64,000 nt of DNA from Squalus acanthias (Eukaryota): the NCBI GenBank assembly GCA_030390025.1, contig CM059432.1, positions 32,614,001 to 32,678,000 of the forward strand, in the 5' to 3' direction. The first letter of the stretch is position 1. Each line of letters starts with the position of its first letter. The position numbers and the translations under genes are program-made. Below the pieces are notes generated by a model that was not told the origin of the DNA, did not search any database, and worked only from the letters and a program-made list of their open reading frames with translations. Below are positions 13,121-55,898 of this stretch, one piece after another.

Positions 13121-14388
13121 TAGGTAGATTTCCAATTTATGGCGTGCATACTTGACCTATAGGGACACACTCCATTTATATATGTTGAAAGAGTTTAGGC
13201 CAGGTTGGCAGTGCCAAGTCTTAGGGACCTCTAAGCATGCACAGGGATACTGTTGGAGTGCAACCAGTTAGAGCTGCACACTGGTAAGCTTCCCAATGCT
13301 TGTCCAGCCAGGTCCTATTTGGGCACTGGCTTGCCGGCTTTTCTAGAGTTAGAGGGGCAGGGAAATCCCAGCCTTAAGTGACAAGGTTACCTCTCCAGGT
13401 CCCATCAATGAAATAACTACGCCCCAGTCTTGCCTGGCTCAGGTATCAGATTACCAAATCTGGCACAGAGTGTTTACTTGGGTCTGAACTTCAATTGCTA
13501 GGTGTGTCAGGTTGAAGCCACCTCGATTCTATAGCGTCCACACTTACCTTCAGCCCTCCCTAGGCAGACAGCGGGTACCATGGGCCTCTTATTAGCATAA
13601 CAATTTGGAAGACAACTCACCATAAAATGTGCAAGCATCATCTTCCTAACTACAATATGGACACTGACCATTCCTAGTCAAATGATGGTACTGCCAGTTG
13701 GAGGTACAGAGCTTTAGCAGCATCTGCACCCCATTCAAGGTAGGCACCAAATCCTGGATAGGCGCGTGCAAGCTCTCATAACCAGCGTCCAGGTAACTCC
13801 CAATTCTCAGCATTTCCTTATCAGGTACACAATGGACTTCAGCATGGAGAAAGGACTTTCACTGGACAACCTGTCATCTTTGGGTTCGAGATGTCCAGTA
13901 TTTATCAACAGAAGTGAAGAATTGCACTTCCTTTTAGGAAAAGCAGAACATTTTGGAAATGCACAGCTGGTCAATCAGTATATGAAAGAAAAACATAGGT
14001 TGATAGCTTTGATGGGCGTCTTCATTAGAACTGGCACCTAAAACATTAACCTTTTCTTTCTCCATTTAGATGTTGATGGGATACATTTCTTGTGATCTTA
14101 TTGGTACTATAATTTAAGAAATATAGATCACAAGAAATGTTTGGATGAAGGTGTCCCTTTGGCTTATTTGATCTCATCCTTCCGGCTTACCAACTCTACT
14201 GTCTCCCCATGATGGCTTTTAATGTCGACCTGAACGGGTAGACAGGAGTGTCATCCAAAGCATGGGACATCCCACAATGCAGCACTTCCTCAGTGCTGCA
14301 GAGGAGTCTCAGCCCAAATTATGCACCCAGATGTGAGAGTGTCACCAAGCTAACATTATCACTTTAAATGTAATTGAATTATACTCAC

Positions 14389-17020: not shown

Positions 17021-18034
17021 GGGGGTGATTGTCAGTGAATACTTTAGGCGCTAAAGTTCCTCCGAGGTGGCCAAGATGAGGTCTTAAGCTGCAACGCCAG
17101 TTTAGCCTGCGTTTAGTGGAAGACGCCATCTTGGTAACGGAGTTGAAGCCAGCGCTAGGAACAGCCACCCGGAGGCTCATTAAACGGCTGATTGCCACTT
17201 AAAATGCCTGCTAGTGCTCATTAAAGAGGCTGCACAGCATTTTGGTGGCTAGCGCTTCAACGAATGCCCTCTCCTAACAGCGATCAGCTTTCTGGGAGTA
17301 AACACAGTGTTGGTGTCAATTACAAGTGCTACTTAAAGGGATACTCAACATTTCATGTTCATTGCTGTTGGAGCTGTGAAGAGGACCTCTGAAACACATC
17401 GGGAGACTTTCTGGGACACTTTGTGAAGACTTCACCAACAATCGAGCAACATTTATTCCAGAAATTCTCTGAGGACTTCACCTAAAAAGAGTAAGTGCTG
17501 TGCTACTCCACCTTATTAGACACCTTATAGGAGTTCTCTAGCTAGGGAGCCCCCTTGGTCTGGACAAGGAATAGGAGGACGACATTTGGCTGGCAGAGCA
17601 GCACCAGCTGCTGCAGAAGTGAGGAACAGGAGGACGAGGTGGTGTCCTTACCTCCTGCGGGTACAGGACATCCCTCCTCCTCTGGACCTCCTCCACCAGG
17701 ACCTCCAGTGCTGCATCCGAGAACCTGTGCACCCTCTCCCTCGGTCCGAGCCATCCTGCAACGTTTCACTGTGTGCCAGCCAACGCACTCCACACCTTCA
17801 GTGGAAGTGGGTGTGAGAGGCCCACATATACTGCTCCACGAAAATTGCGTCTAATCAGCACTTGACTGTTAAACTTGCACGTTTCTGGTTCAACACCTCC
17901 ACGCAAATTCAAATTATGATAATCAGCAATTAGGACCAAAATTGTCTGCTAAAACCAGACTTTCAAACAGGCTGCTTTTATTAGCACTACACCCAGTTAC
18001 TGCCTGTTTTCACCCTTTAGCTAAAATAACCCCT
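17021..18034. mobile_element. Internally deleted Harbinger derivative (about 1 kb), opposite orientation
   Basis: Degenerate TIRs GGGGGTGATTGT / AAAATAACCCCT; AAG on both flanks (17018-17020 and 18035-18037). Myb N-terminal fragment on - (RFSDAALEVLVEEVQRRRDVLYPQ). Confidence 0.7.
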
Positions 18035-35840: not shown

Positions 35841-36585
35841 GGATAGGGCAGCCGGTACAGATCTGTGAAAAGAAAATCCTCTTTGATAAACTTAAGAGTC
35901 CTTTTGAAGAGATGACTAATTGGATAAAGGGAATGCAATAAATGAAGTGCATTTGGATTTTCAGAAGGTATTCAATAAAATGTCTCACAAGAGGCTTGTT
36001 CGAAAAGTTCAGGCATATGATACAAGAGGAAACATAGCAGCATGAATAGAAGGTTAGTTTACGGTCAGGAAACAGAGTTAGGGTAAATGGGTGTTCCTCG
36101 GATTGGAGAAAGAAGTGTACACCAGGATTCTGTGCTGAGCCCACTTTGTTCTCAGTATATATAGATGACTTAGACATGGGCACAGTTAGCACAATCTTGA
36201 AATCTGCTGACAATACAAAAACAGGGGGTTTGACAAACAGCAAGAAAGACTATGAAAGACTTCAGGCAGACAGACAGGTTAGCAGAATTAGTAGATATGT
36301 GGAATTTAATGTGGATAAGCATGAGGTAATGGGCTAAAAATTCGACAGCCCCTGCGCCTGTTCAAAGTAATGCAGGCAGCATTCAAACTTGGTGCTACTT
36401 GCTAATTTAAATGATAATGGTGTGCAGCCCAGCGCTAAATGCGCTGCAGAGTGGCTGCACGCTCAGCAGGGGGCCCAGGTTCATGCGAGGCTAACCTGCA
36501 CTTCTTAAAGGGAGGTGCAGTTTGACGAGACCAGGTGCTGGAAGTCATTCCAGAAGGCAGTTTCAACTGGGAAACATTCAGCAAT

Positions 36586-39500
36586 AAGAACATAAGAAAT
36601 AGGAGCAGGAATAGGCCACTTGGCCCCTCGAGCCTGCTCCGCCATTCAATAAGATCATGTCTTGGGCTCAAAGCCACTTCCCTGCCCGCTCCCCATAACC
36701 CTTCACTCCCTTATCTTGCAAAAATCTATCTCCACCTTAAATGTATTTAATGACCCAGCTCTCTGCAGCAGAGAATTCCACAGGTTTACGACCCTCTGAG
36801 AGAAGAAATTCCTCCTCATCTCAGTTCTAAAAGGGCGACCCTTTATTCTGAAACTATTCCCCCGAGTTCTAGATTTCCCCACGAGGGGAAACATCCTCTC
36901 TGTATCTACCTTGTCGAGCCCCCTCAGTATCTTATATGTTTCAATAAGATCACCTCTCATTCTTCTAAATTCCAATGAGTATAGGCCCAACCTGCTCAAC
37001 CTTTCCTCATAAGTCAACCCCCTCATCTCTGGAATTAACCTAGTGAATCATCTCTGAACTGCCATCAATGCAAGTATATCCTTCCTTAAATAAGGAGACC
37101 AAAACTGTACGCAGTACTCAAGGTGTGGTCTCACCAATACCCTGTACAGTTGTAGCAGGACTTCCCTGCTTTTATACTTCAACCCCCTTGAAATAAAGGC
37201 CAACATTCCATTTGCCTTTTTGATTACTTGCTGTACCTGCATGCTAACCTTTTGTGTTTCATGCACAAGGACCCCCAGGTCCCTCTGAACTGTAGCATTT
37301 TGTAATCTCTCTCCATTTAAAGAATAATTTGCTTTATTTTTCCTGCCAAAGTGGATAACCTCTCACTTTCCCACATTATACTCCATCTGCCAAATGTTTG
37401 CCCACTCACTTAGCCTGTCTATATCCCTTTGCAGGTTCTTTGCGTCCTCTGCACAACTTGCTTTCCCACCCATCTTTGTATCATCCGCAAACTTGGCTAC
37501 ATTACACTCGGTCCCTTCATCCAAGTCATTAATGTAGATTGTAAATAGTTGATGCCCCAGCACCAATCCCTGTGGCACCCCACTAGTTACCGTTTGCCAA
37601 CCGGAAAATGACCCATTTATCCCGACTCTCTGCTTTCTGTTAGTTAGCCAATTCTCTATCCATGCTAATATATTACCCTCAACTCCGTGAGCTATTATCT
37701 TATGCAGTAACCTTTTATGTGGCACCTTATCGAATGCCTTCTGGAAATCCAAATACACCACATCCACTGGCTCACCTTTGTCCACCCTGCTCGTTACATC
37801 CTCAAAGAACTCCAGCAAATTTGTTAAACATGATTTCCCTTTCATAAAACCATGCTGACTCTGCCTGACTGCATTATGATTTTCCAAATGCCCTGCTACT
37901 GCTTCCTTAATGAAGGACTCCAGCATTTTCCCAACGACAGATGTTAGGCTAACTGGTCTATAGTTTCCTGCTTTCTGACTCCCTCCTTTCTTAAATAGGG
38001 GTGTTACATTTGCGGTTTTCCAATCCGCTGGGACCTCTCCAGAGTCCATGGAATTTTGGTATATTGCAACCGATGCATCCACTATCTCTGCAGCCACTTC
38101 TTTTAAGACCCTGGGATGCAGGCCATCTGGTGCAGGGGACTTGTCATCTTTTAGTCCCATTATTTTACCAACTACTATTTCCTTAGTGATAGTGATTGTC
38201 TTTAGTTCCCCCCTCCCTGTGGCCCCTTGATTATCCATTATTGGGATGTTGTTAGTGTCTTCTATCGTGAAGACAGATACAAAATATTTGTTCAGAGTCT
38301 CTGCCATTTCCCCGTTCCCCATTATTAATTCCCCAGTCTCATCCTTTAAGGGACCAACGTTTACTTTAGCTACTCGCTTCCTTTTTATATACCTGTAGAA
38401 GCTCTTACTATCTATTTTAATATTTCTTGCCAGTTTACTCTCATAATTCATCTTCTCTCTCTTTATTATTTTTTTAGTCATCCTTTGCTGCTTTTTAAAA
38501 ATTTCCCAATCCTCTGGTCTCCCACCAATCTTGGAAACCTTGTATGCCTTTGTTTTCAATTTGATAGCTTCCTTTACTTCCTTAGTTAGCCACGGATGGT
38601 GCTCCCTTCTCTTAAAATCTTTCTTTCTCACTGGAATATATTTTTGTTGAGAGTTATGAAATATCTCCTTAAATGTCCGCCACTGCATTTCAACTGTCTT
38701 ACCCTTTAATTTATTTTTCCAGTCCACTTTAGCCAGTTCTGCCCTCATGCCATTGTAATTGCCTTTGTTTAAGATCAGGACACTGGTTTGAGTTACAACT
38801 TTCTCACCCTCCAACTGAATTTGAAATTCAACCATGCGATCACTTTTTCCGAGAGGATCCTTTAATATGAGATCATTTATTAATTCTGTCTCATTACACA
38901 GTACCAGACCAAGATAGCCTGCTCCCTGGTTGGTTCCATTACATACTGTTCTAGGAAACCATCCCGGATACACTCTATGAACTCCTCCTCAAGGCTACCA
39001 TGGCCAATTTGATTTGGCCAATCAATATGGAGATTAAAATCACCGATGATTATTACCGTACCTTTTTTACAGGCCTCCATTATTTGTTGATTTATACTCT
39101 GTCCAATAGTATTGCTACTGTTCGGGGGCCTGTAGACTACGCCCACCAGAGACTTTTTCCCCGTATTATTTTTTATCTCTACCCAAACTGATTCTACATC
39201 TTGATCTTCTGAGCCAATATCACTTCTCACCACTGCACTGATCCCATCCTTTACCAACAAAGCCACCCCACCTCCCTTTCCTTTCTGTCTATCCTTCCGA
39301 ATTGTCAAATACCCTGGAATATTCAGTTCCCAGCCCAGGTCACCTTGCAACCACATCTCTGTAATGGCGATCAGATCATACCCATTTGTATCTATTTGTG
39401 CCATCAACTTATCTATCTTGTTACAAATGCTGCGTGCATTCAGATATAGAGCTTTTAACTTTGTCTTTTTACCATTTCTACTTGTTTTGGCCCCATTTTC

Positions 39501-39885: not shown

Positions 39886-41825
39886 CACAACAGGCCAGAG
39901 AGAGGGCTCCAAGGTTCTCAGACGCAGCATTGCAGGCCTTAGCACACAAGGTGGAGAGAGGTCCTGTTTCCACAGGGGGCCCTCCAGACAGACACTGCGA
40001 AGCAATAAAGTTCAATGACCTCACACGAGTGGTCAAGGTGAGTGAATGCATCTTCAAATGCCATATCCCACAAACTGCACCACTAGCCTCACACACTACT
40101 CAATTCACCACACCCCCATTGCTCATCTACCAACAATCTCTATCAATCACGACTCATACCTCACATTCATATGCTCCATCTCACCCTCACACACTTACCA
40201 CTGCTGCAAGCCTCACACCCACACCTCACAGCTTGCACACACTGCCAGCTATTCAACCATGACAGCCACATCAGCCAAACACATTCAACCATACTCACTG
40301 ACATACTACCCTCTCTTGTGCAGGACAAGGTGGCACACAACCGTAGGCAGCAGAAGCTAACCGGAGGGGTACAGGCGCGCCTCCATATACTGACTCCGCT
40401 CGAGGAGACAGTGCTCGGCATAATTGGAGTGGCTGTGACTGAGGCCGTGGCCAGCGGTGGCGATGAAACCATTGAAGATGACGGTATGCTCATACCTAAT
40501 CCTCCTTCTCACATACCACTTCCCCCTCATCCCACAATCTTTTGTGACTTACAAGCTGCAGATGGTGTAAGCATGCACCTCTTGCTTTCCTCCAACCCCA
40601 CGCTCGCCCCCCACAGTACAGTCCTACCCTTGTACCTTTCTCATTTAAGAGGTGGAAGAGGAAGAGGAGAGTGATGATGAAGAAGACACACAGCCACTCA
40701 ATAGGACACTCGCAGCCACCAACGTAGATACTGGCACTGACCTTAGAGGGTAGCTTACAGAGCTGCACATGGTGAGTCACCGGGCACGAGCGGGCTGCAG
40801 CCAGGACAAGGGGAAAGGGTAGCACAGGTGCCAGCTCCCTGGAGGGCGAGGCCGCACATGAGTTCTGCTGCACAGGACTCAGATGAGGAATTCGATGGGA
40901 CAGCCTACAGAACAAAGCTGATGGTTATGCACAACGAAATGCTTGGTGCATTGGCAGGCCTGCCAGAAAGCCTGAATGCAATGTCAAGGAGCATGGAGGA
41001 GTCCAGCACTAACCTTGCACAGGGCTTTGCACAGAGCTTGGTGCCCATCCTTTCCAGCATGGAAGGCGTGGGCAATCCATTAGCGCACTTGTGAACCCAG
41101 GCATCATGCAATGCCTGATGGCCGCTGTCTCAGATTCCACTGCAGCACAAGCAGAAGCCACCCAACGGCTGAGTGCTGCAATGGAAGCTCAGACTGAAGT
41201 CACGCAAGCACAGACTGCTGCCATCATGGTTGCGGTCAGCAGTGTTGAAAGGGGCTTGCTGGGTGTCACGGCAGTCCAGCAATTGGTCCCTCAGCAAATT
41301 ACTAGGATTGCTGGGACGTTGCCCCGGAGGAGTGGCAGTGGCTCCGTGGAGGACAAACCTGCAGTCCTCTCTCATGACAGCATTCGTCCTCCCACCATTG
41401 CCACTCCACAAGTGGCCTTGCTGTTGCCTGTCAGTCAGCCAGCCCAGACTGCTGCTGCCCATGCTGACGTGGTGCAGTCCGAAGCCGGGCCGACTAGGCC
41501 CAGAGCTGCTCGAGGTCGTCCTGCAAGGCCATCTGCAGTCTCCCCCATTGAAAGTCAGCAGCCTTCCACCAGCCCTGTTGCAGCCACTGGAGTAGCACTG
41601 CGTAGGAGTACTTGGACAGGCAAAAGCACATGGAAGGCAGGCACTAAGGGAATGCACAGGGGTGATTAGTTGACATTTGAATGAAATATCGTAATGGCTT
41701 GATTCATAAAATTGGTTTGGAATGTTTTATGGTGGCTTTTATTGTAGCATTGTGGCTAAGAAAATACTGTGATGGTCAGTAACAGAGGGAAGGTAAGGTG
41801 TGGGACTATTGGTGAATGGGTAATT

Positions 41826-42563
41826 ACATAGGATATACGGCACAGAAACAGGCCATTCAACCCAACCAGTCCATGCCGGTGTTTATGCTCCTCCTGTCTT
41901 TCCTCATCTAAATCTATCAGCATAACCCTCTATTCCCTTCTCCCTCATATGCTTGTCTAGCTTCCCCTTAAATGCATCGATACTATTCGCTTCAACCACT
42001 CCCTGTGGTAGCGAGTTCCACATTCTCACCACTCTTGGGTAAAGAAGTTTCTTCTCAATTCCCTATTGGATTTCTTGGTGACTATCTTATATTGATGGCC
42101 TCTAGTTATGCTCTTCCCCACAAGTGGAAACACTCTCTCTGTATTTACTCTATCAAAACCTTTCATAATTTTAAAGACCTCTATTAGGTCACCCCTCAGC
42201 CTTCTTTTTTCAAGAGAAAAGAGACCCAGCCTGTTCATCCTTTCCTGATATGTATACCCTCGCATTTCTGGTATCATCCTTGTAAATCTTCTCTGCACCC
42301 TCTCCAGTGCCACTATATCCTTTTTATAATATGGAGACCAGAACTGCATGCAGCACTCCAAGTGTGGCCTAACCAAGGTTCGATACAGGTTTAGCATAAC
42401 TTCCCTACTTTTCAATTCTATACCTCTAGAAATAAACCCTAGTGCTTGGTTTGACTTTTTTATGGCCTTGCTAACCTGTGTCGCAACTTTTAGTGATTTG
42501 TGTATTTGTACTCCGAGATCCCTTTGTTCCTCTACCCCACCTAGACTCGCATCCTCCAAGTAA
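41826..42563 (-). mobile_element. CR1 3' fragment nested in the decayed Harbinger
   Basis: ORF 42026-42610 encodes a CR1 ORF2 C-terminus; TAATT on both flanks. Confidence 0.85.
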
Positions 42564-45110
42564 TAATTGGGGTTGTGTTCACTGGTACCGCAGTCGGATG
42601 AATCAATCACGGATAGCCTGGACAGAAAGCGGCTGTCTGGATTGCCTCCCCCCTTTCTCCTCCTCCTCTTCCACTGGTCGCCGTATGCCTGGTGGTAAGG
42701 GCTGTGCCCTCATGATGACGAGGATGTGGAGCATGCAGCAGACCACGACAAATCTTGAGACGCACTCTGGCGAGTACTGCAGGGCTCCTCCAGAGCGGTC
42801 CAAGCAGCGGAAGCGTTGTTTAAGGACACCAATGGTCTGCTCTATCAGATTTCTTGTAGTAGCATGGCTTTCACTATATGTATGCTGCCAATGTGTGCAT
42901 GGGTTGCACAGCGGAGTCATGGGCCAGGTGGTCAGTGGATAGCCCTTGTCGCCCAGTAGCTACGCTCTGGTTTGTCATGGTGGCTCAAATGTTGATGGTA
43001 CAATGGACATGCCGCAGAATGAAGGCATCATTACTGCTGCCAGGAAATGGAACATTAACCTGCATGATGCGCTGAGTATGGTCACACACCAGCTGGCCAT
43101 TGTAGGAGTGGAATCCTTTCCAGTTGCAGTACATCTACGAATTGAGATGCGGCGCCCGCAAAGCGACATGTGTGCAGTCAATGGCACCATGCACCATGGA
43201 GAAACCTGCTATCCTGGCAAAGCCACGTGCTCGCCCAGCCTGCTTCTCTCTAGCAAGAGAGAATGAAATGTGTTCAGCTCTGTTTGCATACAGAACCTCA
43301 CTCACCTCCCTTATACAGGAGTGGATGGTGAACTGGGAGATGTTACAGATGTTGCCTGCTCCAGCCTGACTTGAAGAAGTTCCAGGCCACGGTCACTTTA
43401 CTGCCACTGGCAATGCCGTCCTTGGCCCTGGACTGAGGCTGCAGTTCTGCCTGCAGAAGGTGGCAGATTTCAGTGAGCACCTCTTTAGCAAATCGGAGAC
43501 GTCGCATACACTGTTCGCCGCTGAGGTTGAGGTAGGAGAATTGCTCCCTGAAGACCGTGGGTGGATATACCTCCTGCTGAGAGTCCTTCTCCCCCTCCTC
43601 CCTCTTCTAGCAGCTTGTCCTGCTCTGTGTTGCCTCTGCCCATTCTCCGTGTCATGCTGCAGGCCAAGGGGGATAACAAACTACTGCACCCATGTCTGGG
43701 AGCAACTGGTCTGAGCAGACCCATTGCAAGTCAGTATCAAGTCCTTGAGCACGTGCCACACCAATCCTTGTAGATTTTAGGCAACTTTAAAGTCTAGAAA
43801 GCATCAAAGACTTCTACAAACTCAGCAACAGCTAGTAGAAATTAATCAGCAAATAACCTGTAAGTAGGTGATGATCCATTTAAATAGTGCTGGTGGTGGG
43901 GGTCTTTCCTGCTGCTAAACGCATGTTCAGCTGTGCGAGGTTAAGAGAGGGCATTAGTTCTAGTGTTGAGGTCGAAAATGGCAGCGCTGGCGTCAAATCA
44001 GCATTACACACTGACTGACGCCACGATCTGCATACTCTGCATACTTACGGCACACACTCCCAGCGCCCTCACCAAAATGGTGTCAGACAATGTGCATGCG
44101 CTGCTCGGATGCCATTTTCGACCCAAAACGGCAGCTGTAGTGCCAAAACAACGGGCACTGCGCAACCGAATTTTTAGCCCACAATGTTTTGGCAAGAAAA
44201 CCAAGACATATAGACTCATCAAAAGGTGTGGATTAACAAAAAGACCTAGGAATTCAAGTACATAATTCCCTGAAAGTGTGAGTGCAGATAGATAAAGCCA
44301 TTAAATAAAAAGCCAAGAGCTTTTGGATTTTATAAATGTGGGCATAGAATACAAGAAGTAATGATGAATTTGTAAAACATTGGTTAGACGACACTCAAAG
44401 GATCTTGTGCAGTTTTGGGTACCCCATTACAGAAAAGACATTAAAGCCGTAGAGAGCAGAGATTGACTAGAATAGCAACATAGGAACAGAAGTAGACCAT
44501 TCAGCCCCTCGAGCCTGTTCTGCCATTCAATGGGATTATGGCTGATCTGTATCTTAACTCCAACCACCTGCCTTGGGTTCTTTTATACCCTTGCTTAGCA
44601 AAAAAATTCTTGATCTCAGATTTAAAATTATTAATTGAGCTAGCATCCACTGCTTTTTGTGGGGACGAGTTCTACACTTCTACCACCCTTTGCGTGAAGA
44701 AGTGTTTTCTAACTTCTCTCCTGACTGGCCTGACTCAGTTTTTAAGGTTATGTTCCCTTGTCCTAGAGTTCCCCCACCAATGGAAAAAGTTTCTCTCTAT
44801 CTACCCTATCAAAATCCTAAAAACCTCAATCAAATCACCCCTTGACCTTCTATATAAGCCTAGTTAATGTAATCTATCATGCTAATCCAACCCTTGGAGC
44901 CCTGGTAACATTCTGGTGAATCTGTGCTGCACTCCTTCCAAGGTCAATATATCCTTTCTAAAGTGTGGTGCCCAGAACTATACACAGTTTCCAGATGTGG
45001 TCTAACCAGGGCTTTGTACAGCTGTAGCAAAACTTCCTCCCCTTTATATTCTAGCCCTCTATTTATAAAGGCTAACATTCCATTAGCCTTTTTGATTATT
45101 TTTTGTATCA

Positions 45111-45561
45111 GGACACAGTGGACCTGAGCGGGAGCGGCGGCAGCCACATAAAGAGCGGGAGAGGAGAAAGCCCAGGACACAGTGGACCTGAGCGGGAGCG
45201 GCGGAGGCAACATAAAGAGCGGGAGAGGAGAAAGCCCAGGACACAGTGGACCTGAGCGGGAGTGGCGGAGGCAACATAAAGAGCGGGAGAGGAGAAAGCC
45301 CAGGACACAGTGGACCTGAGCGGGAGCGGCGGAGGCAACATAAAGTGCAGGAGAGGAGAAAGCCCAGGACACAGTGGACCTGAGCGGGAGCGGCGGAGGC
45401 AACATAAAGAGCAGGAGAGGAGAAAGCCCAGGACACAGTGGACCTGAGCGGGAGCGGCGGAGGCAACATAAAGAGCGGGAGAGGAGAAAGCCCAGGACAC
45501 AGTGGACCTGAGCAGGAGCGGCGGCAGCAACAATATAAGGAGCGGGAGAGGAGAAAGCCCA
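45111..45561 (+). repeat. Tandem array of 7 x 64-bp GC/purine-rich units at the CR1 5' end
   Basis: Unit GGACACAGTGGACCTGAGCGGGAGCGGCGGAGGCAACATAAAGAGCGGGAGAGGAGAAAGCCCA starts at 45111, 45175, 45239, 45303, 45367, 45431 and 45495. Confidence 0.95.
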
Positions 45562-48500
45562 GGACAGAGCGGATCTGAACGGCGATTTAAAAGCAACAAA
45601 AAAAGGAGTGAAGTCACAGGACAGCAGGTAGGTGATTGGTTGGTGAGTATCACTGTTTTTTTTCTTTAAACTAAGAGCTGGGGAACTATAACTATTATGT
45701 TATTAAATATTAACTTAACTAGATACACTAATTAATTAATTAATATAACTATAAATAATCGTTTGATTATAAATAAAAAGGTCTGGAGATAGCAGGGCAG
45801 GCTTGTGTCGGGACTGTAGTATGTGGGAGTTTGTGGACAGCGAGACTGTCCCGGATTCCCACATCTGCAGGAAATGTCTCTGCCTTCAGTCACTCCGGCT
45901 CAGAGTCATTGAGCTGGAGTGCGAGTTGGAGACACTCCGAAACAGAAGGGATGGGGAGGAATTTCTGGATAGTTTTATCCAGAATACAGTCACACCCCAG
46001 AGGAAAGCACAGGTTCAGGAAAGGAAGGGTATGACTGTTAGGGAGCCGGGATAGCAGGGACTTAGGAGAGGTTGAGAAGAGGTCCCGCAGACACTGGTCC
46101 TGTCCAACAGGGATGATGTACTCGCTAACTGTGAGGACAAGGAGAAAGACTGCGGGGAGGACAGCCACAATGCAGACCAAGGCACCGAGCCTCAAAAGGC
46201 TGTCCGGGGGGGGGGGGGAGGCGGGGGGGGTTGGTGGAAGAGCAGAATAGAAATGTGGTAGTGATACGGGATTCTATAATTAGGGGGCTAGATAGCGTCC
46301 TCTGCAGCCAAGAACGAGAATCCTGAGGGGTGTGTTGCCAGGGTAAGGGATATCTCGTGGCAGCTGGAGAGGAATTTGGAAAGGGAGGGGGTAAATCCAG
46401 TTGTCGTAGTCTGTGTCGGAACTAACGACTTAGGGAGGAGGTCCTGCTGAGGGAGTATCAGGAGTTGGGAGCTAAATTAAAAAGCAGAATCGCAAGGGTA
46501 ATAATCTCTGGATTATTGCCCAAGCCACGTGCAAATTGGCATATCAGAAGAATTAACATGTAGCTAAACTGATGGTGTGGGAAAGAGGGGTTACTTTTCA
46601 TGGGACACTGGCACCAGTGCTGGGACAGAAAGGAGCTGTACTCACGGGACAGGCTCGACCTAAACCGGAATGGGACCTGTGTCCTAGCGGAAAGGTTAAA
46701 TATGGAGGTGGCAAAGGCTTTAAACTAGTAAAACGGGAGGAGGAATCTACAAGAAATGAAGCCAGCCTAAATATAAATAAAACAGGAAAGAGGAGCATAG
46801 GAAAGAGTAAAGTAATGGAGGACATTGCTGGCCAGGGAATAAATAGAGTTATACAACAGGAGTTTAAAAAAATGGTTAAAAATAAAAGTGACAGGAACTG
46901 CTATTAAAAATAAGTTAATCTGTCTGCACAGCAATGCACACAGTGTCCTTAATAAAATAGGGGAGCTGGAAGTAATCATGCGTTGTGAGGAACCAGACAT
47001 AGTAGGGATTACTGAGACATGGCTACAGAAAAAATCAGGACGGGGAATTAAACATTGCAGGTTATAACATATTTAGAAAAGATAGAAAGGGAAAAAAAGG
47101 AGGTGGGGTTGCTGAACTTCTGAGGGATAACATAATGGCAGTAGAAAAAAGTGACGCAGCTATCAGCAAAACAGAAATAGAATCCATGTGGATAGAGATA
47201 AAAGACAATAAAAGATCAATCACACTAACAGGGGTAGTCTACAGACCACCTAATAGTGGAAGGGAGGAAGAAATATGTAAACAAATTAGGGAAATTAGTA
47301 AAAAACATAGAATAATCATCATGGGGGATTTCGACTACCCAGATATTAACTGGACAGAAGAGATAGGTAAAGGGGATAAGGGAATGGAGTTCCTACAATG
47401 TGTACAGGACTCCTTGCTAACCCAATATGTAAAAAGCCCAACAAGGGAGGATTCACTATTGGATCTAGTAATGGGGAATGAACCAGAGCAGATAAAAGAA
47501 GTAAAAGTAGGGCAACACCTAGGCAATAGTGACCAGAATATAATACGCTTTAAGATAATAATTGAGAAAGGCGTAAGTATGACAAAGACCAGGGTAATAG
47601 ATTGGAGAAAAGCTGATTTTGAGGGACTGAGAATAGAACTTGGGAAAATAAAATGGACAACAATATTGGCAAACAGTGATGCAGAACAGCAATGCGAAAC
47701 ATTTAAAAGTGTTCAACAGAGTCCAGGAAAAATATATTCCGCTAAAAATCAAGAACAAGCTAAACGCTAATGAGACACTGTGGATGAATAAAGCCATATG
47801 GGAAAAACTGAGGGTAAGGAAAGAGGCATACATTAAGTACACGGACAGCAGGGAGAGCATGATAAGGGAGACAAGTCAAAAAGACAATTAGGAAGGCAAA
47901 GAGAAATTATGAAATTAAATTATCAAGGAACATAAAACAAAATAGTGAAATATTTTACAGGCACGTAAATAAAAAAAAGGTCGGGATGGGACTAAGGTCA
48001 CTAAGGGATGGACAGGATAATACCACAGGCAGCGATAGAGAGATGGCAGAGATTTTAAATAATTATTTTGCTTCAGTATTTACCAGGGAGATAGAACAGG
48101 TGGAGATGACGTCGGAAGTTGAGATTAGTAAAGAGACAACAGCATTTAAAATAAAACGAGAAGATATATTAAATAAACTAATGGAACTCAAAGAGGATAA
48201 AACCCCTGGTCCGGACGGATTACATCCGTGCATCTTAAAAGAATCTAGGGAAGAGATAGCAGAGGCATTACTATATATATTTAGTAATTTGTTGGAAAAA
48301 GGTATAGTGCCAGAGGACTGGCAGATAGCTAACGTAATACCTATATTTAAGAAGGGAGATAGAACATGTCCAGGGAACTATAGACCAGTCAGCTTAACAT
48401 CGGTGGTAGGAAAAATAATGGACTCCCTGCTAAAGGAGAAAATGGAAGAACATCTAGAAACTAAAAATATAATAAATAATCAGCATGGATTTTAAAAGGG

Positions 48501-50238
48501 AAAGTTTTGCTTGACCAAACTAATTGAATTTTTTGAAGAGGTAACAGAGAGAGTAGACAAGGATAATGCAGTAGATGTAATTTATCTAGATTTTAAAAGG
48601 TACCACATAATAGACTAATGAATAAGGTCAGAGAATGTGGAGTCAGGGGACAAGGAGCAGAATGGATAGCTAGCTGGCTTCAAGACAGAAAGCAGAGAGT
48701 AGGGGTAAAGCGCAGCTAATCAGAGTGGCAGAAAGTGGGAAGTGATGTTCCACAAGGATCAGTGCTGGGACCACTGTTGTTCACAATTTAGACTCTGGAA
48801 TCAAAAACACAATTTCTAAATTTGCGGACGACATCAAATTGGGGGGGATAGCCAATACTGAGGAGGACTGCAACAAATTACAGGAGGACATTAATAAACT
48901 TGCAGAATGGGCATATAATTGGCAAATGAAATTCAACACAGATAAATGTGAGGTATTACATTTTGGTAAGAAAAATAGGAGGTTACATATTACTTGGAAA
49001 ATAAAAATCTAAATGGGATAGAGGAGCAATGGGATCTCGGAGTACAAATACAAAAATCACAAAGTATCGACACAGGTTAACAAGGCCATAAAAAAGGCAA
49101 ACCAAGCACTAGGGTTTATTTCTCAAGGGATAGAATTAAAAAGTAGTGAAGTTATGCTAAACTTGTATCGAAACTTGGTTAGACCACACTTGGACTACTG
49201 CGTACAATTCTGGTCGCCATATTATATTAAGGATACAGAGGCACTGGAGAGGGTGCAGAGAAGATTTACAAGGATGATACCAGAAATGCGAGGGTGTACC
49301 TATCAGGAAAGGATGAATAGGCCGGGTCCCTTTTCTCTTGAAAAGAGAAGGCTGATGGGTGACCTAATAGAGGTCTTTAAAATCATGAAAGGTTTTGATA
49401 GAGTAGATAGAGAGAGTGTTTCCACTTGTGGGGAAGAGCAAAATTAGAGGCCATCAATATAAGATAGTCACCTAGAAATCAAGTGGAAATTCAGAAGAAA
49501 CTGCTTTACCCAGAGAGTGGTGAGAATGTGGATCAGGGTTAATTAATAACCTTGTAGTAAAGGAGCCTCTAGGGAACAGTGATCATAATATGATAGAATT
49601 TTATGTTGAGTTTGAGAGTGATTTAGTTAAGACGGAACCTGGGTCCTAAACCTGAACAAAGCAAACTACGTAGGTATGAGAGGCGAGTTGGCTAAAGTAG
49701 ATTGGGAAACTAGATTAAAAGATATTACAGTAGAAAAGCAATGGCAAACATTTAAAGAAATAATTCAAAATTCACAAAGAATATACATTTCCTTAAGGAA
49801 TAAAAACACCATGGGAAAAATGGTTCACCCGTGGTTAAAAAGAGAAATTAAAGATAGCATTAGATTAAAGGAAGAGACTTAGGGGTAGAAATTAGGTCGC
49901 GCCCCATTTGGGGCGCAAATATCGTCCGCGCGCAAATATTAGCGCCTGGCGCTAATTATCGGCACTGACAGGAAACTTCACTTTTACCGCCCCGGGAGGT
50001 GAGTGGAGCGCTAAATTAGGCGCTGCACACCTCTCTTAAGGCGCAAAGGCCTAGGAGTGAGGCGCTAACTCAGCGCACGAGCGCAGCGCAGCTGCTGCCA
50101 GTTAGCGCGGGAACACAGACACACTGACGCCGGACACTTCTTAAAGCGGGGGGGGCCACTTGCTCCCCAGCCACACCCTGCTCATTGCAGCCTTGAATCT
50201 CAGCCTGGAGAGACCTGTAATCCATTTTGCTGCCAAGA

Positions 50239-52203
50239 ATGGAGAGGGTGAGAGAACGCGCTCATCGCTTCACCGAGCGGGCCTTGGATGCTCTGGTTGA
50301 CGCAGTGGAGCGCAGACGATGCATGCTGTTCCCAGAGAGTGGCAGGAGGCCTTTGCCACGCGAGTTCAGAAGAGTGTGGAGGGAGGTGGCTCAGAGCGTC
50401 TCCTCCAGGAGCATGGTGCCCAGGACCCATGTCCAGTGCCGCAAGAAGTTCAACGACCTCACTCGGGTCGTCAGGGTGAGTGGCTTTTTCTCAATACCTC
50501 TCCATCCCTCCATCTCAACCTCACTCTATGGCCAGAGGGTCTTAAAACCCCAATGCACAACACTCATCCAACACCTATGGCCCTTTCATCAAACACACAC
50601 ACACATTCCACACTTTGCATACAGTAAGGGCTATTCACCTATGGGAGGCACATCAGGCAAGACCATGGCTGCATATTGTAAGGGCTATTCACCTATGGGA
50701 GGCACATCAGGCAAGACCATGGCTGCATATTGTAAGGGCTATTCACCTATGGGAGGCACATCAGGCAAGACCATGGCTGTATATTGACTCAGATGCTGTC
50801 CTTTTTCTTGCAGGCTAAGCTGGCTCATAATCGGAGACAGCAGCAACGGACGGGTGGAGGGCGGCTTCAGCTGCAACCCCTCAGCGATCTGGAGGAGCGC
50901 GTCCACAGGATTGTGGCAAGCCGGGTGATCGGTCCCGTCGCCACTGGAGACGCCGACCCCGTTGTGGACAGCAATGGTAAGGTCATCACCTTTTTGTCCT
51001 CTGTCCTTCCACTTGTCCCTCACAATACCAGCCTTTGACACTTTCAATCCAACTTGCTAACTCGCTGCACTTATTCCTCCCTTACTGCCACCCTGTCCTC
51101 ACGCTAAAGCCACTCTTGTACCTCCCTGCTTTCAGATGGTGATTCACCAGCTGAGGAGATGGTCCCTGAAGCTGCCACTGGGAGTGATGCTGCAGCTGAG
51201 GAGGAAGAGGTAGCCGGAGCATCAGTGCCACCCTCTCCCGAGGAAGCCCATGGCCACACTGGGAACACGCCTTCCCCGGAGGGGAGCAGGGGGGAAGGGG
51301 CTGATGATGGTGAAGTTCCAGGACCCAGCGGGCTGCAGCAACGCCATGGGGGGGGGGAGGGAAGAACGGGGGAGCAGGGGGGAAGGGGCTGATGATGGTG
51401 AAGTTCCAGGACCCAGCGGGCTGCAGCAACGCCATGGGGGGGGGAGGGAAGAACGGGAGCCTTCTCCCCAGAGGGAGAGTATGCCAGACACTCCTAATGC
51501 AATGGACGCAGAGGAGGAGCGGATGATTGCAGAAATGAACAGCCAGGCGGTGGTCATGCACACTGAGCTCATGGGTGCAGTGGGAAGGGTGCCCGAATGC
51601 ATTGAGGCACTGGCAAGGAGTGTGGAGCACTTCGCTGTAGCACAGGCGGATGCCACACTAAAGCTTACTGCTGCAATTCAGTCACTGGCTGCCAGGAACC
51701 CATCTGAGCCTGCTCTCATGCAGACTCAGATTGAGGCCACGCGAGCACTGACTGCTGCCATCCTCGATGGTTCGTGCACATGTCCCCGGGGCTGTCACCG
51801 CGCCGCAGCAGGCCAGCAATCTGTTCTCAGGCAAATTGCTCCGGATGCTGAAGTGCTGCCCCGTGGGAGTGCCAGTGTGTCGGGCGAGCAGGGAGTTGCT
51901 GTCCTCTCTCACGATGACAGCATTCCTGCTGCCAACACTGTCACTTCTCCACTGCACTTGCCACCGCCTGTAGGACAGACTGCTGCCGCCCATGCAGAGT
52001 TGGTGCAGTCTGCAGCCGGGCCCTCCAGGCCCAGAAGTGGTCGAGGCCGGCCTTCAGGGGCATCTGCAGTGTCAGGGTCTGACAAGCAGCAGCCTTCCAC
52101 CAGCCTTGCTGCAGCCACTGAGGTCCCATTACGGAGGAGCAGTAGGGTTAGAAGGGGGGAAGTGCGCAAGGGAAGGAGATCACCCTCGAAGGGCAAAAAG
52201 TAG
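50239..52203 (+). CDS. Harbinger Myb/SANT-like DNA-binding protein gene; predicted exons 50239-50475, 50814-50976, 51136-52203; one-base frameshift in the G-run at 51348-51357
   Basis: Exon 1 MERVRERAHRFTERALDALVDAV...WREVAQSV...QCRKKFNDLTRVVR then gtgagt. Exon 2 follows ttgcag, AKLAHNRRQQQRTGGG..., then gtaagg. Exon 3 follows ttcag. With G9 instead of G10 the spliced ORF is 488 aa. Confidence 0.8.
50624..50785 (+). repeat. 3 x 54-bp tandem repeat in intron 1 of the Harbinger Myb gene
   Basis: GTAAGGGCTATTCACCTATGGGAGGCACATCAGGCAAGACCATGGCTGCATATT at 50624, 50678 and 50732. Confidence 0.95.
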
Positions 52204-52497
52204 GATGTGTGCCAAAATGCTGGTCATTTTTTTATTAAAGGCCGAGGTTCATGGCCCAACTTTTGTTTAGTGTTTTGGACATTATCTCCAGGTTGTGAGA
52301 ACCAGTTATGTTATTGACTGTTTTTTGGTGTTTATTTCTATGAGTTTCTCATGAGGAATTGACACACACAGAGTTTGTACAATAAATAAGTTTCTGTATT
52401 CAAAATATACATGGCTGGTGGTTGGAATTATTGGTGCCTTGGCCGGCTTAGGGGTTGCGTGCTGGGTTGATTCGTGTTTGTAGCACTGGCAGGGGTC

Positions 52498-53658
52498 CTA
52501 GAAGCGGCTTGCTATTAGTCGTTGACGGACGGCCCTTGCAGTTTGACCATTGTGGGCCGCCCTCCTGCCTTGGTGCTGCTGCTGATCATCGTCCTCGGCC
52601 TGTTCCTCCTCTTCCTCCTCCTCCTCTTGTGGTGCTGCAAGGCCTGGTGGCATTGGCTGCGTCCTGAGGATTGCCATGTTGTGCAACATGCAGCACACCA
52701 CTACGAATTTGGAAACTTGCTCAGGCGAGTACTGCAGGGCTCCTCCGGAATGGCCCAGACAGCGGAATCGTTGTTTGAGCACGCCGATTGTGCGCTCAAT
52801 AATGTTCCTCGTTGCTTGTTGGCTTTCCTGGTACCGCAGCTCAGCAGGGGTGTTTGGCGCACGGAGCGGTGTCATCAGCCAGGTGCTCAATGCGTACCCC
52901 TTGTCCCCCAGAAGCCAACCAACTGGCTGATGCGGTGCCTCGAAAATTTCTGCCACAGTACTCTGGCGCAGGATGAAAGCATCGTGGCAGCTGCCCGGAT
53001 AGTGGGCATTGACAGCGAGAATCACCTGTCTGTGGTCACAGACCAACTGCACATTCAAGGAATGGAACCCCTTTCTGTTCCGGAACTCCTCTGCATTCTC
53101 TCGCGGAGCACGCAAAGCCACATGCGTGCAGTCAATGGCGCCCTGCACCATGGGGAAGCCCGCTACCCTCGCAAAGCCCATAGCACGGTCATGCTGCTTG
53201 TCTGGGGTCATAGGGAAGGAGATGAAGTCTCGTCTCCTTGTGAAGAGGGCATTGGTGACCTGCCGAATGCAGCGATGCACCGCAAACTGGGAGATATTGG
53301 CGAGGTCCCCAACAGCAGCTTGGAATGAGCCAGTGGCGTAGAAGTTCAAGGCCACTGTGACCTTCACTGCCACCGACAGAGACGTCCTGGACCTCAGCTG
53401 AGGCTGCAGATCTGGCTGCAGCAGGTGGCAGAGCTCAGTGACCACCTCCTTGCTGAATCGCAGCCTTCGCAAACACAGCTCCTCGGACATGTGGATGTAG
53501 GAGAGCTGTTCACGATATACCCTGGGAGGGTAAGCTCTCCTGTACATGCGCCTGATGGGCCTCCTCCGTCTGGCCATCATTGCCACTCTCTGTCTGCGTC
53601 TCACTCTGCTCCGATTGAGCTGGAGCAGGACGACGCCCCCAATCATTGCAGCCCCCAT
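52498..53658 (-). CDS. Harbinger (HARBI1-like, DDE_Tnp_4 type) transposase, 386 aa, uninterrupted
   Basis: Motifs ALNFYATGSFQ, GFPMVQGAIDCTHV (D), NRKGFHSLNVQLVCD, LLGDKGY (D), RNIIERTIGVLKQRF (E), CCMLHN; acidic C-terminal tail. Confidence 0.93.
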   Translation of the reverse strand: MGAAMIGGVVLLQLNRSRVRRRQRVAMMARRRRPIRRMYRRAYPPRVYREQLSYIHMSEELCLRRLRFSKEVVTELCHLLQPDLQPQLRSRTSLSVAVKVTVALNFYATGSFQAAVGDLANISQFAVHRCIRQVTNALFTRRRDFISFPMTPDKQHDRAMGFARVAGFPMVQGAIDCTHVALRAPRENAEEFRNRKGFHSLNVQLVCDHRQVILAVNAHYPGSCHDAFILRQSTVAEIFEAPHQPVGWLLGDKGYALSTWLMTPLRAPNTPAELRYQESQQATRNIIERTIGVLKQRFRCLGHSGGALQYSPEQVSKFVVVCCMLHNMAILRTQPMPPGLAAPQEEEEEEEEQAEDDDQQQHQGRRAAHNGQTARAVRQRLIASRF

Positions 53659-54300
53659 CTTCTCTTTGCCAGAAAAGTAATGAGGTACAGCAACGAAAGT
53701 AGCAGCAAAGTTAGGATGAACTAGGCAAAACTACCTCACAAAGCGTTGAGTCAATGTAGAAGTCTCTCTCTCTCTCTCTCCGAATCTCTCTCTCTCTCTC
53801 AGAACGAGTGGTGCATAAATGTCGACCACAGAAAAAGACAGGAAGAGGCCCCCTTTAAATAGCGCCCCCCCCAGCCCCAGACCGATTGATAACGTTCCAG
53901 TCTTCCGGTCGTTGGAAGCGCCAGGCGGTAAGGCAGGGGGCGCCACTCAATTTCCGCTCCGGGGCGCCCCAAGGGCGTTGCACCACAGAATGACGTCACA
54001 ATCTGCGCGCGCAGGTGGTCGCAGCGGTAAGTTTTAGCGCCGCCGCACAATCTCAAGTTAAGTTCTCGAGCGGCGCAAACAGCGCTGCGCCCAGGCGTTA
54101 GCGCCTTAACGCCCCATTAGCGCCCATTTAAGGCGCTAACGGGAGGCGCAACCAACTGAATTTTTACCCCTTATAGTGTTGCCAAAAAGAGTAGTAAGCC
54201 TGAGGATTGGGAGGATTTCAGAATTCAGCAAAGGAGGACCAAGAAATTGATTTAAAAAAAAGGGAAAATAGAATATGAGAGTAAACTAGCAAGAGACATA

Positions 54301-54929
54301 GGGGGAAAAATTCGGTTGCTTTGCGCCTCCTGTTAAACGGGGCACAAAGCAACTAGCGCCCGGGCACGGCGCCGCCAACCCCTCCGAAATTCAGTGGGAG
54401 GTTAGCGTTGGCGGTAACCGTTAGCGCCCTGTGGTGCTGCGCCGCCGGCGATGACGTCATCGCCGTTCGGAGCACCCCACTTGCGATCTTCGGTAGCACC
54501 CCCTGACTTACCGCTGGACGCTATGTCCGATGGGGTCGGGGAGCCTACCTGCGGCTGGGGCAGCGCTAATTAAAGGCGATGTGCCTGGCGGCCATTTATG
54601 TTGCTGGCCGCCAGCATCTGCCCCTGTTGCCGTCCCCGGCCTCCACTGCAGCCCCCCCGCGGAGTGCCAGCTGTGCTCCGTGAGCCCGGCACTTCTCGAG
54701 TGCCGGGCTCTTTTGCCGGCACTCCAATTCCTGGTGGCCCAGCTGGGTCCCGGGTTGTGCTGCGCAAGGCCCCTCCCCCTTTAAGATATTCCCTCGCAGC
54801 GCCCCAAGAGGAAAGCGGGGCGCTTCTAGTAGTGCCCCGCTTCCCTCTTGGGGCGCTGCCGATGAATTTTGGCTGCGGGGGCGCTAATTTGTTAGCGCCC
54901 CAGAGGGGGCGCGACTCAATTTCCCCCCC
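54301..54929. mobile_element. Non-autonomous Harbinger MITE (629 bp), inverted relative to the adjacent autonomous element
   Basis: TIRs GGGGGAAAAATT / AATTTCCCCCCC; ATA TSD at 54298-54300 and 54930-54932. Host CR1 frame ..ARDI|KTDCKSFY.. is restored on removal. Confidence 0.9.
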
Positions 54930-55070
54930 ATAAAAACAGACTGTAAAAGCTTCTATAGGTATGTAAAAAAGAAAAGATTAGCGAAAGTAAACGTGGGTCC
55001 CTTACAGGCTGAGACAGGAGAAATTATAATGGGGAATAAGGAAATGGCAGAGAAATTAAACAAATACTTT

Positions 55071-55705
55071 GGGCTGGATTTTCATTGACCCGTGGAGCTG
55101 GGTTTGGAGGCGTGTGGGGGGTTAAAATTGCGAAAACTGGCGGGTGGGCACAAGTCTGCCTCCATCCCGCCTCCACGCAATTTTCGTGAAATCGTGTCTG
55201 CTGGTCCCGACTGCGTCCCGCCTTTAAGAGACGGGATAGGCTGTTAAGGCCCTTAACAAGCACTAAATTGACTCTATAATGCCATTTTGAAAGGCCTTTG
55301 TGATTTTAACCCTTGTTCTACGTGAAGCACGCCTGTTCTGAACCACGATTGTGAAACCTGGCGGGAGCACATTTGGCTGGATATCTCTCTCTCTCTCTCT
55401 CTGTGGTGGTGTAAAAATATGTGGGAACAGACTTAGGGCTGCTGCTGCTCATTTTGCATTCAGGTCCTCTCACAGCAAAGGCCAGGCAGTCTTTACAGAC
55501 CTTCAATGCAGCAGCAATGATGACATCATCAGAGGCGACTTCCAGACTGAAAACACTAATTGTGTCATGGGTTCCCACATGCTGGAACTCAATTGCCCAA
55601 TTAGGTGAAAATCGTATCAATCTCCCACATCCAATTGCAGTCGGGTGGATAACACGAAAAGTGGATGACACGACCCCAACCCGCCCCAGTATCAAAATCC
55701 AGCCC
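55071..55705. mobile_element. Second Harbinger-type MITE (635 bp), different subfamily
   Basis: Perfect 12-bp TIR GGGCTGGATTTT / AAAATCCAGCCC; TTT TSD at 55068-55070 and 55706-55708. Host frame ..NKYF|VSVFTE.. is restored. Confidence 0.88.
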
Positions 55706-55898
55706 TTTGTGTCTGTCTTCACGGAAGACTCAAAGAACCTCCCGAAAATAGTGGAGAACCAAGGGTCTAGCGAGAACGAGGAACTGAAAGAAATTAGTAT
55801 TAGTAAAAAAATAGTATTGGGGAAATTAATGGGACTGAAAGCCGATAAATCCCCATTACCTGATGGCCTATAAAAGAGGTGGCTATAGATATAGTGGA

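Follow-up and report, generated by a model that had tools for sequence, protein, structure and literature searches.

The 64,000-nt stretch of Squalus acanthias DNA analyzed here (GenBank assembly GCA_030390025.1, contig CM059432.1, positions 32,614,001 to 32,678,000; below, the window, from whose first letter all coordinates are counted) contains a PIF/Harbinger-type element of 4,289 bp at 49882–54170. It carries two convergent genes, one for a DDE transposase and one for a Myb/SANT-like helper protein, between terminal inverted repeats (TIRs), and it interrupts a long interspersed nuclear element (LINE) of the CR1 type. An earlier note, made from the sequence alone, had presented it as a near-intact, young, and possibly still mobile two-component transposon.

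Element boundaries and target site

The left target-site duplication (TSD), TTA (49879–49881), is followed by the left TIR GGGGTAGAAATT (49882–49893, plus strand), and the right TIR, which reads GGGGTAAAAATT in the reverse direction (54159–54170, minus strand), is followed by the right TSD, again TTA (54171–54173). The TIRs match at 11 of 12 positions and show little similarity past 12 bp; the 12-bp TIRs announced in the earlier note are thus present at both ends but imperfect. The host LINE, which we take to be a CR1 from the appearance of its peptide, lies on both sides. Its left part (49631–49878, plus strand) is homologous to another LINE copy of the window (36584–38517). Its right part (54174–54300, plus strand) has one in-frame stop and ends at the next insertion; in all, the host LINE to the right of the element consists of several pieces, which match the same window copy. 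When the element and one TTA were deleted in silico, the frame of the host LINE read through.

For comparison with public data, contigs of four runs (X1, X2, X9, and X17) out of 24 listed were used. X1 and X2 are DNA runs of organism A, X17 is also from organism A, and X9 is from organism C; the X1 contigs come from about 55% of the run. In run X2, CR1 paralogs are continuous over the insertion site, lack the element, and have the TTA triplet only once. The boundaries were therefore set by the interrupted LINE together with the X2 paralogs that join over the site, and both the ends 49882 and 54170 and the exact TTA duplication proposed earlier were confirmed by the restored CR1 frame and the empty-site paralogs. 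Joints from 49876 to 54172 or 54177 were rejected as an empty allele, as they represent CR1 paralogs with different upstream letters. Among the contig records listed, none bridges a flank and a TIR of the element.

TIR-plus-TSD pairs 4.0 to 4.6 kb apart were found 5 times in the 35.9 million position pairs of the window and 2, 2, and 0 times in shuffled sequence. Since this chance control gives similar counts, TIR-plus-TSD was rejected as stand-alone proof of an element. We accept the element as real because a CR1 is interrupted and because of its gene content: it is a genuine full-length cut-and-paste transposon copy, inserted at TTA in an already decaying CR1. The earlier statement that nothing is inserted inside it stands for foreign elements, since family contigs fill 30 of 30 bins of the element in three runs, but two internal tandem duplications are present (see below).

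As far as the available text of Han et al. 2015 (PMC4482050) goes, these features are those of the PIF/Harbinger group of the PHIS superfamily. The element shares with the group the 3-bp TWA duplication (TTA on both sides), TIRs (here 12 bp, 11 of which match), two open reading frames (ORFs), and the placement of the catalytic triad, and its length is near the group's mean of about 4.1 kb. The TIRs begin with GGG, as in the Nuwa groups described in the same text. The target departs from both of these groups, being TTA instead of the CWG duplication of NuwaI and reading, at this one site, C-TTA-T instead of the C|TNA|G of NuwaII.

Inside the TIRs, both subterminal regions are CpG-rich and contain the motif TTAGCGCC. 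On the left (49894–50131), it occurs in both orientations, with exact copies at 49939, 49948, and 50061; on the right (53851–54158), exact copies are at 54034, 54098, 54117, and 54132. The first 250 bp of the element thus hold three exact copies, and eight with up to one mismatch; the last 320 bp hold four and eight, respectively. No exact copy is present in the 3,719-bp interior, three are found in a neighboring miniature inverted-repeat transposable element (MITE), and one in the 58 kb of the window outside these elements. The Myb-like protein of the zebrafish element Harbinger3_DR binds the element ends, as cited in the accessible parts of PMC2836001 and PMC9392472; by analogy, we infer that the TTAGCGCC motifs are candidate binding sites of the Myb/SANT helper.

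The transposase and the helper gene

The transposase gene (52498–53658, minus strand) is a single open frame: the 386 codons from 53658 to 52501 contain no stop, and the Pfam domain PF13359 (DDE_Tnp_4) is matched at 158 of 158 positions (E 5e-38). Three acidic residues form the catalytic triad, D176 in the motif GAID (53131–53133), D252 in LGDKG (52903–52905), and E288 in IERT (52795–52797), all on the minus strand. The same residues are in the majority at these columns among 120 protein matches (98, 93, and 75, respectively), and the complete D-D-E is kept in 52 of the 109 matches covering all three positions. In a structure model built from a 21-row alignment (mean predicted local distance difference test score of 82), D176 lies in a strand, D252 immediately follows one, and E288 is part of a long helix, which is the placement given for the PHIS superfamily in the part of PMC4482050 available. 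The uninterrupted 386-amino acid (aa) transposase with all three candidate catalytic residues is thus as the earlier note had described it. A search of solved structures by sequence gave just one chance match (E 0.038); by fold, none was found at E 0.001 or better, the weak rows being integrases and DDE transposases.

The closest transposase match among those listed, a Pristiophorus japonicus "putative nuclease HARBI1" (P0001), shows 65% identity over 90%, and the best 64 of the 120 listed protein matches are all from elasmobranchs; their HARBI1 names are automatic annotations. Since no match above 66% is found among those listed, the element family has no annotated close relative in the protein database. 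Together with the Pfam domains of both genes, the elasmobranch best matches substantiate the assignment as a two-gene PIF/Harbinger-type element of cartilaginous fish.

A separate observation concerns three pairs of proteins in alignment A1 (P0004/P0005, P0009/P0012, and P0039/P0040). Each pair consists of near-alike HARBI1-like proteins from different shark or ray genera in which the third catalytic E is replaced by K, Q, or R. By sequence, they look like several domesticated transposase genes particular to cartilaginous fish.

The helper gene lies on the plus strand. Exon 1 (50239–50475, 79 codons) encodes the DNA-binding domain (PF13873, E 1.3e-9; PF13837, E 1e-6) and is followed by intron 1 (50476–50813), exon 2 (50814–50976), intron 2 (50977–51135), and exon 3 (51136–52203). 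Both introns are of the GT-AG type, and splicing is predicted from homology. The exon 1–exon 2 junction is spanned by a gap-free alignment to the sawshark protein P0006 (47% over 109 aa). Two further Harbingers of the window (10692–13124 and 39888–44186) have two genes in the same convergent layout and are older, decayed, and members of other families; both have the same exon 1 donor and one has a matching exon 2 acceptor, and exon 2 is 45% identical to the older copy at 40327–40479. A separate Myb/SANT second gene, as expected of a PIF/Harbinger element, is therefore present on the evidence of the PF13873 match and the homology-supported exons. The two genes share a 3′ region (52204–52497) with candidate polyadenylation signal hexamers at 52234 and 52381 on the plus strand and at 52231 and 52331 on the minus strand.

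Both internal duplications lie within the helper gene. Intron 1 contains three head-to-tail 54-bp copies (50624–50786) with one difference among them. Exon 3 contains a tandem duplication of 88 + 87 bp (51281–51455) with GGGAGC microhomology at its bounds, and its units are identical save for a run of ten G residues in the first (51348–51357) versus nine in the second (51436–51444). Because of the ten-G run, the spliced frame as assembled stops after 218 aa (stop codon 51390–51392) out of about 488 codons; with one G fewer in exon 3, a frame of 488 codons is obtained. Downstream of the break, the frame is open up to the stop at 52201–52203 and is 43% identical over 205 aa (E 1e-29) to the older element at 41097–41663, which argues that the lost C-terminal part is real coding sequence. 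Its end is basic (12 K/R among the last 30 aa), a stretch that may have a role in nuclear import. The 218-aa fragment retains the DNA-binding domain and may have partial function. The spliceable convergent Myb/SANT-like gene of the earlier note is therefore upheld for its orientation, for the GT-AG introns, which lie where they had been placed, and for the first junction, but not for an intact frame. As assembled, the element has one intact ORF of the two, whereas a potentially active element, as defined in the available text of PMC4482050, has both intact.

Run X2 contains joints from 51372 to 51461, 51463, or 51465 (skips of 88 to 92). They were rejected as copies without the duplication, being supported on their short sides by 21 to 24 letters and readable as second-unit tail variants. 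A search for homologs of exon 3 beyond the break gave 0 of 3,692 candidates, a search with exon 1 against longer proteins gave 1 of 158, and a metagenome scan yielded 595 pattern matches, none of them confirmed. Contigs of run X17 cross the first donor and span intron 2 unspliced, and they also cover the CR1 flanks; X17 is only guessed to be RNA and may be DNA, and among the 24 listed runs there are no RNA runs on record. With the same reservation about X17, no splice junction was found among the 15 listed of 76 joints.

Abundance, divergence, and age of the family

Sequence of the element was detected in 20 of the 24 listed runs, which belong to 11 studies and carry six organism labels (A to F), with 37 to 88% of the sampled 31-letter words present; the best share per organism label ranges from 46 to 88%. 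On the 4.9-kb stretch assessed, 29,545 contigs were obtained from X1 and 46,614 from X2, depth of contigs not being a copy number. In X1, 6,970 contigs fall in the identity band of 99% or more, 12,693 in the 95 to 99% band, and 9,882 in the 90 to 95% band; the respective values for X2 are 11,311, 19,756, and 15,547. The family thus consists of very many, moderately diverged copies. Depth in X9 is 89 to 128 at the element ends and mostly 13 to 43 in the interior, and X1 has single contigs in which 50016 is joined to 53833 or 54149; these observations hint at internally deleted derivatives of the family.

Eight listed contigs of X17 differ from the element at 51 of 1,789 letters (2.9%), and eight of X9 differ at 52 of 2,563 letters (2.0%). 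Conversion of word shares agrees with these values (0.43 and 0.52 corresponding to 2.7 and 2.1% divergence); across the six organism labels, the word shares imply a divergence of 0.4 to 2.5%.

This distance is not all decay. Of the 15 differences listed for the transposase and for Myb exon 1, 11 are silent versus 23% expected (P about 6e-5), while in exon 3, 3 of 12 are silent, a neutral level. The silent excess suggests that the lineage of the element split from the X17/X9 type while both were under selection to transpose, so that part of the 2 to 3% represents a lineage difference under purifying selection. At 6 of the 39 listed sites, X1 and X2 alike show the other letter at about 95% of depth or higher; these six sites look private to this copy. 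In the available text of PMC10587355, the mutation rate of the epaulette shark is 7 × 10^-10 per site per generation, with an upper limit of 14.1 × 10^-10. At this rate, six sites in 4,289 (0.14%) correspond to about 2 (or, at the upper limit, 1) million generations, and 2.5% divergence corresponds to 36 (18) million. The private-looking sites thus represent at least a million generations, a value that rests on the rate of another shark, that may include letters from a low-copy donor, and that bounds the age of the lineage and not strictly that of the jump.

Two other signs of youth turned out to be weak clocks. In simulations of neutral decay, a 386-codon frame stays open in 8 to 45% of copies at 2% divergence and in 2 to 33% at 3%; since many neutrally decaying copies keep the frame, the open transposase says little about age. 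The ends are CpG-rich, as the earlier note had pointed out, with observed/expected (o/e) ratios of 1.08 and 1.16, for which the TTAGCGCC motifs account in part. The neighboring MITE has ratios of 1.08 and 0.71 at its ends, and the two decayed Harbingers have 0.85 and 0.69 at theirs. Given that these in-window controls, decayed copies included, are CpG-rich too, CpG retention was rejected as a clock. CpG is a poor clock here also because CpG-decay changes make up just 3 of the 39 listed differences and 37 of 105 changes in X1 are transitions. Transversions prevail between the element and family contigs (about two-thirds of the 105 places in X1), and changes of the CpG type are few; seen on its own, this pattern is unusual for a vertebrate repeat.

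Several other repeats surround the element. The MITE mentioned above (54301–54929, 629 bp, ATA duplication, ends GGGGGAAAAATT and GGGGGGGAAATT) is Harbinger-like, carries TTAGCGCC, and contains a hairpin with 32-bp arms at 54796–54859; CR1 paralogs lack it. A second MITE (55071–55705, 635 bp, TTT duplication, ends GGGCTGGATTTT matching at 13 of 14 positions) has no TTAGCGCC and is of a different family, within the same CR1. A single CR1 copy has thus taken up three independent insertions of Harbinger type in about 400 bp of its sequence (window 49873–55714). Each of the three CR1 targets is preceded by A-N-A-C (AGAC, AGAC, and ATAC), AGAGAC is common to two of them, and the third resembles the Harbinger3_DR palindrome. 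The transposase pieces of the two older Harbingers are 50 to 69% identical to that of the element and carry stops and frameshifts, and one of them is interrupted by LINE pieces; partner ends of both were sought in the window and not found. The copy described here is the best preserved of the three two-gene Harbingers. The window also contains an isolated Myb/SANT N-terminal fragment (17655–17741, minus strand; 55% over 29 aa) and a tandem array with a 64-bp unit (45109–45566; about seven copies, 96% matches).

Status of the copy and its known relatives

Overall, the results suggest that the element is probably one ordinary full-length member, no longer autonomous, of a long-lived, abundant family moved via the known two-protein cut-and-paste route. 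For this copy, the proposal of a young, possibly still mobile system is unsupported: the helper gene carries a frameshift in the assembly, the element is 2.0 to 2.9% distant from the family and has private-looking changes, near-identical sequence occurs under six organism labels, and the supposed signs of youth are weak clocks. By analogy with Harbinger3_DR and Ping/Pong, the Myb/SANT protein would bind the repeated TTAGCGCC inside both ends, bind the transposase, and direct it into the nucleus and onto the TIRs, whereupon the DDE transposase would excise the element and insert it at a 3-bp target, which becomes duplicated. The family would have moved over a long period via successive source lineages, mobilizing shorter derivatives as well. 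Since its insertion, the copy would have drifted, gaining private substitutions at a few sites, the two tandem duplications, and the frameshift seen in the assembly. This frameshift would remove the conserved C-terminal half of the helper protein, and the products of the copy could then not mobilize it unless the 218-aa fragment is enough for this. Its ends would allow mobilization in trans if an intact source persists.

A number of observations weigh against this interpretation. The frameshift depends on a single G of a homopolymer run, the kind of error most often made in assembly; no indel is listed at this position in the contig comparison, which passed over some repeats. Among 94 columns with a conservation of 80% or more, the transposase departs at 3, a lower number than in most of 79 homologs (range 1 to 25). 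CpG o/e at the element ends exceeds that at the ends of the older elements. The 1-Mb run X6 (organism B) holds 79% of the words, or about 0.8% divergence by conversion, so close relatives of the element exist and the copy may be far younger than 2 to 3% suggests. Finally, the differences listed are 40 of 127 (39 within the element) and the joints listed are 15 of 76. As a separate point, the 79% in X6 compares with 0 to 3% in four sibling runs; X6 may hold one very close copy or the orthologous locus.

Alternatively, the copy would be natively intact and belong to a young, still-transposing subfamily: assembly would have introduced the tenth G, the 87-bp duplication would preserve the frame, and the germ line would express both genes. 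The homopolymer break between otherwise identical duplication units, the open transposase with its full triad and few departures, the silent nature of much of the distance to other contigs, and run X6 all fit such a copy. We nevertheless consider it unlikely. The three departures fall on near-invariant residues, N277Q being seen in 0 of 115 homologs, H280Q in 4 of 117, and D302G in 1 of 113, and in the structure model N277Q and H280Q sit on the helix that bears E288. The two duplications, about six private-looking sites among the 39 listed (1 to 2 million generations at 7 to 14 × 10^-10), the sharing of family sequence by six organism labels, and the lack of a spliced joint among the 15 listed of 76 also speak against native intactness.

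The copy could also be truly frameshifted and non-autonomous while the family keeps intact sources and low-rate activity in at least one host species. The very high abundance, with 6,970 and 11,311 short contigs in the band of 99% or more, is consistent with this, the silent excess shows long-lived source lineages, and sea kraits provide a precedent, one species having 269 intact copies (accessible text of PMC8437027). Most contigs, however, are at 90 to 99%, and organisms A and C share letters at most listed sites, as would fit a burst before their split; persisting activity is therefore doubtful. Domestication as a HARBI1/NAIF1-like gene pair retained by the host is hardly credible, for the open frame and the shark best matches annotated as HARBI1 are outweighed by the TIRs, the TSD, and the CR1 insertion (HARBI1, NAIF1, and MSANTD genes being single-copy, syntenic, and without TIRs or TSD), by the very high abundance of the family, and by the kept triad and broken helper frame. 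Horizontal transfer among marine hosts, instead of descent, as the cause of cross-species sharing is likewise very improbable: the low divergence among six organism labels and the Harbinger-Snek case described in the accessible text of PMC8437027 would fit it, but the labels are codes, silent on relatedness, 2% fits descent among close relatives given slow shark evolution (rate from the available text of PMC10587355), and the best 64 listed protein matches are all from elasmobranchs.

Among known systems, the element is close in design to Harbinger3_DR of zebrafish, which was reportedly reconstructed by Sinzelle and co-workers in 2008. Both use two proteins, and the Myb-like protein of Harbinger3_DR binds the ends and imports the transposase, as cited in the accessible parts of PMC2836001, PMC3016246, and PMC9392472. 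Its duplication is CWG in a 15-bp palindromic target instead of TTA, and the reconstructed element is mobile in human cells according to these sources, whereas the shark element is known here from sequence alone and is likened by description. Harbinger-Snek of sea kraits, in the account available in PMC8437027, is likewise massively expanded, common to congeners, and present as full-length, solo-ORF, and short derivatives; its 269 and 1 fully intact copies, RNA reads over both ORFs (in a species other than that with 269), and horizontal origin all pertain to sea kraits. Vertebrate Harbingers with intact copies are thus already published.

A Harbinger burst in coelacanth is said, as cited elsewhere, to have been described by Smith and colleagues in 2012. 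The coelacanth and the newt Pleurodeles waltl (accessible text of PMC5741667) have large genomes that evolve slowly and, as in the shark, are rich in Harbingers with a Myb gene; a recent burst is described for P. waltl, which is of a different host lineage and in which expression was demonstrated. Harbinger expression in medaka gonads is described in the available text of PMC9179366, a 2022 survey that, in that text, found no Harbinger in elephant shark and called for tests in other cartilaginous fish. In their available parts, the shark genome papers PMC8455134 and PMC12498223 mention Harbingers in one line only. In the literature on shark Harbinger families, mostly open papers, we found no description, and supplementary repeat tables of shark genomes may bear on this; judged from the 65% best protein match and this literature, the family may be undescribed.

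If the copy were natively complete and its subfamily still mobile in a shark, it would represent a two-component vertebrate transposon that works as found in nature, targets TTA, and needs no reconstruction from a consensus before use. An intact mobile subfamily would likewise offer a native two-protein vertebrate transposon for studies of mechanism and structure and for gene-transfer tools. As it stands, the element contributes a single well-preserved member of a Harbinger family abundant in elasmobranchs and fills the small gap stated in the available text of PMC9179366. It also indicates that elements in shark genomes, where mutation is slow, look younger than they are when judged by open frames and CpG-rich ends.

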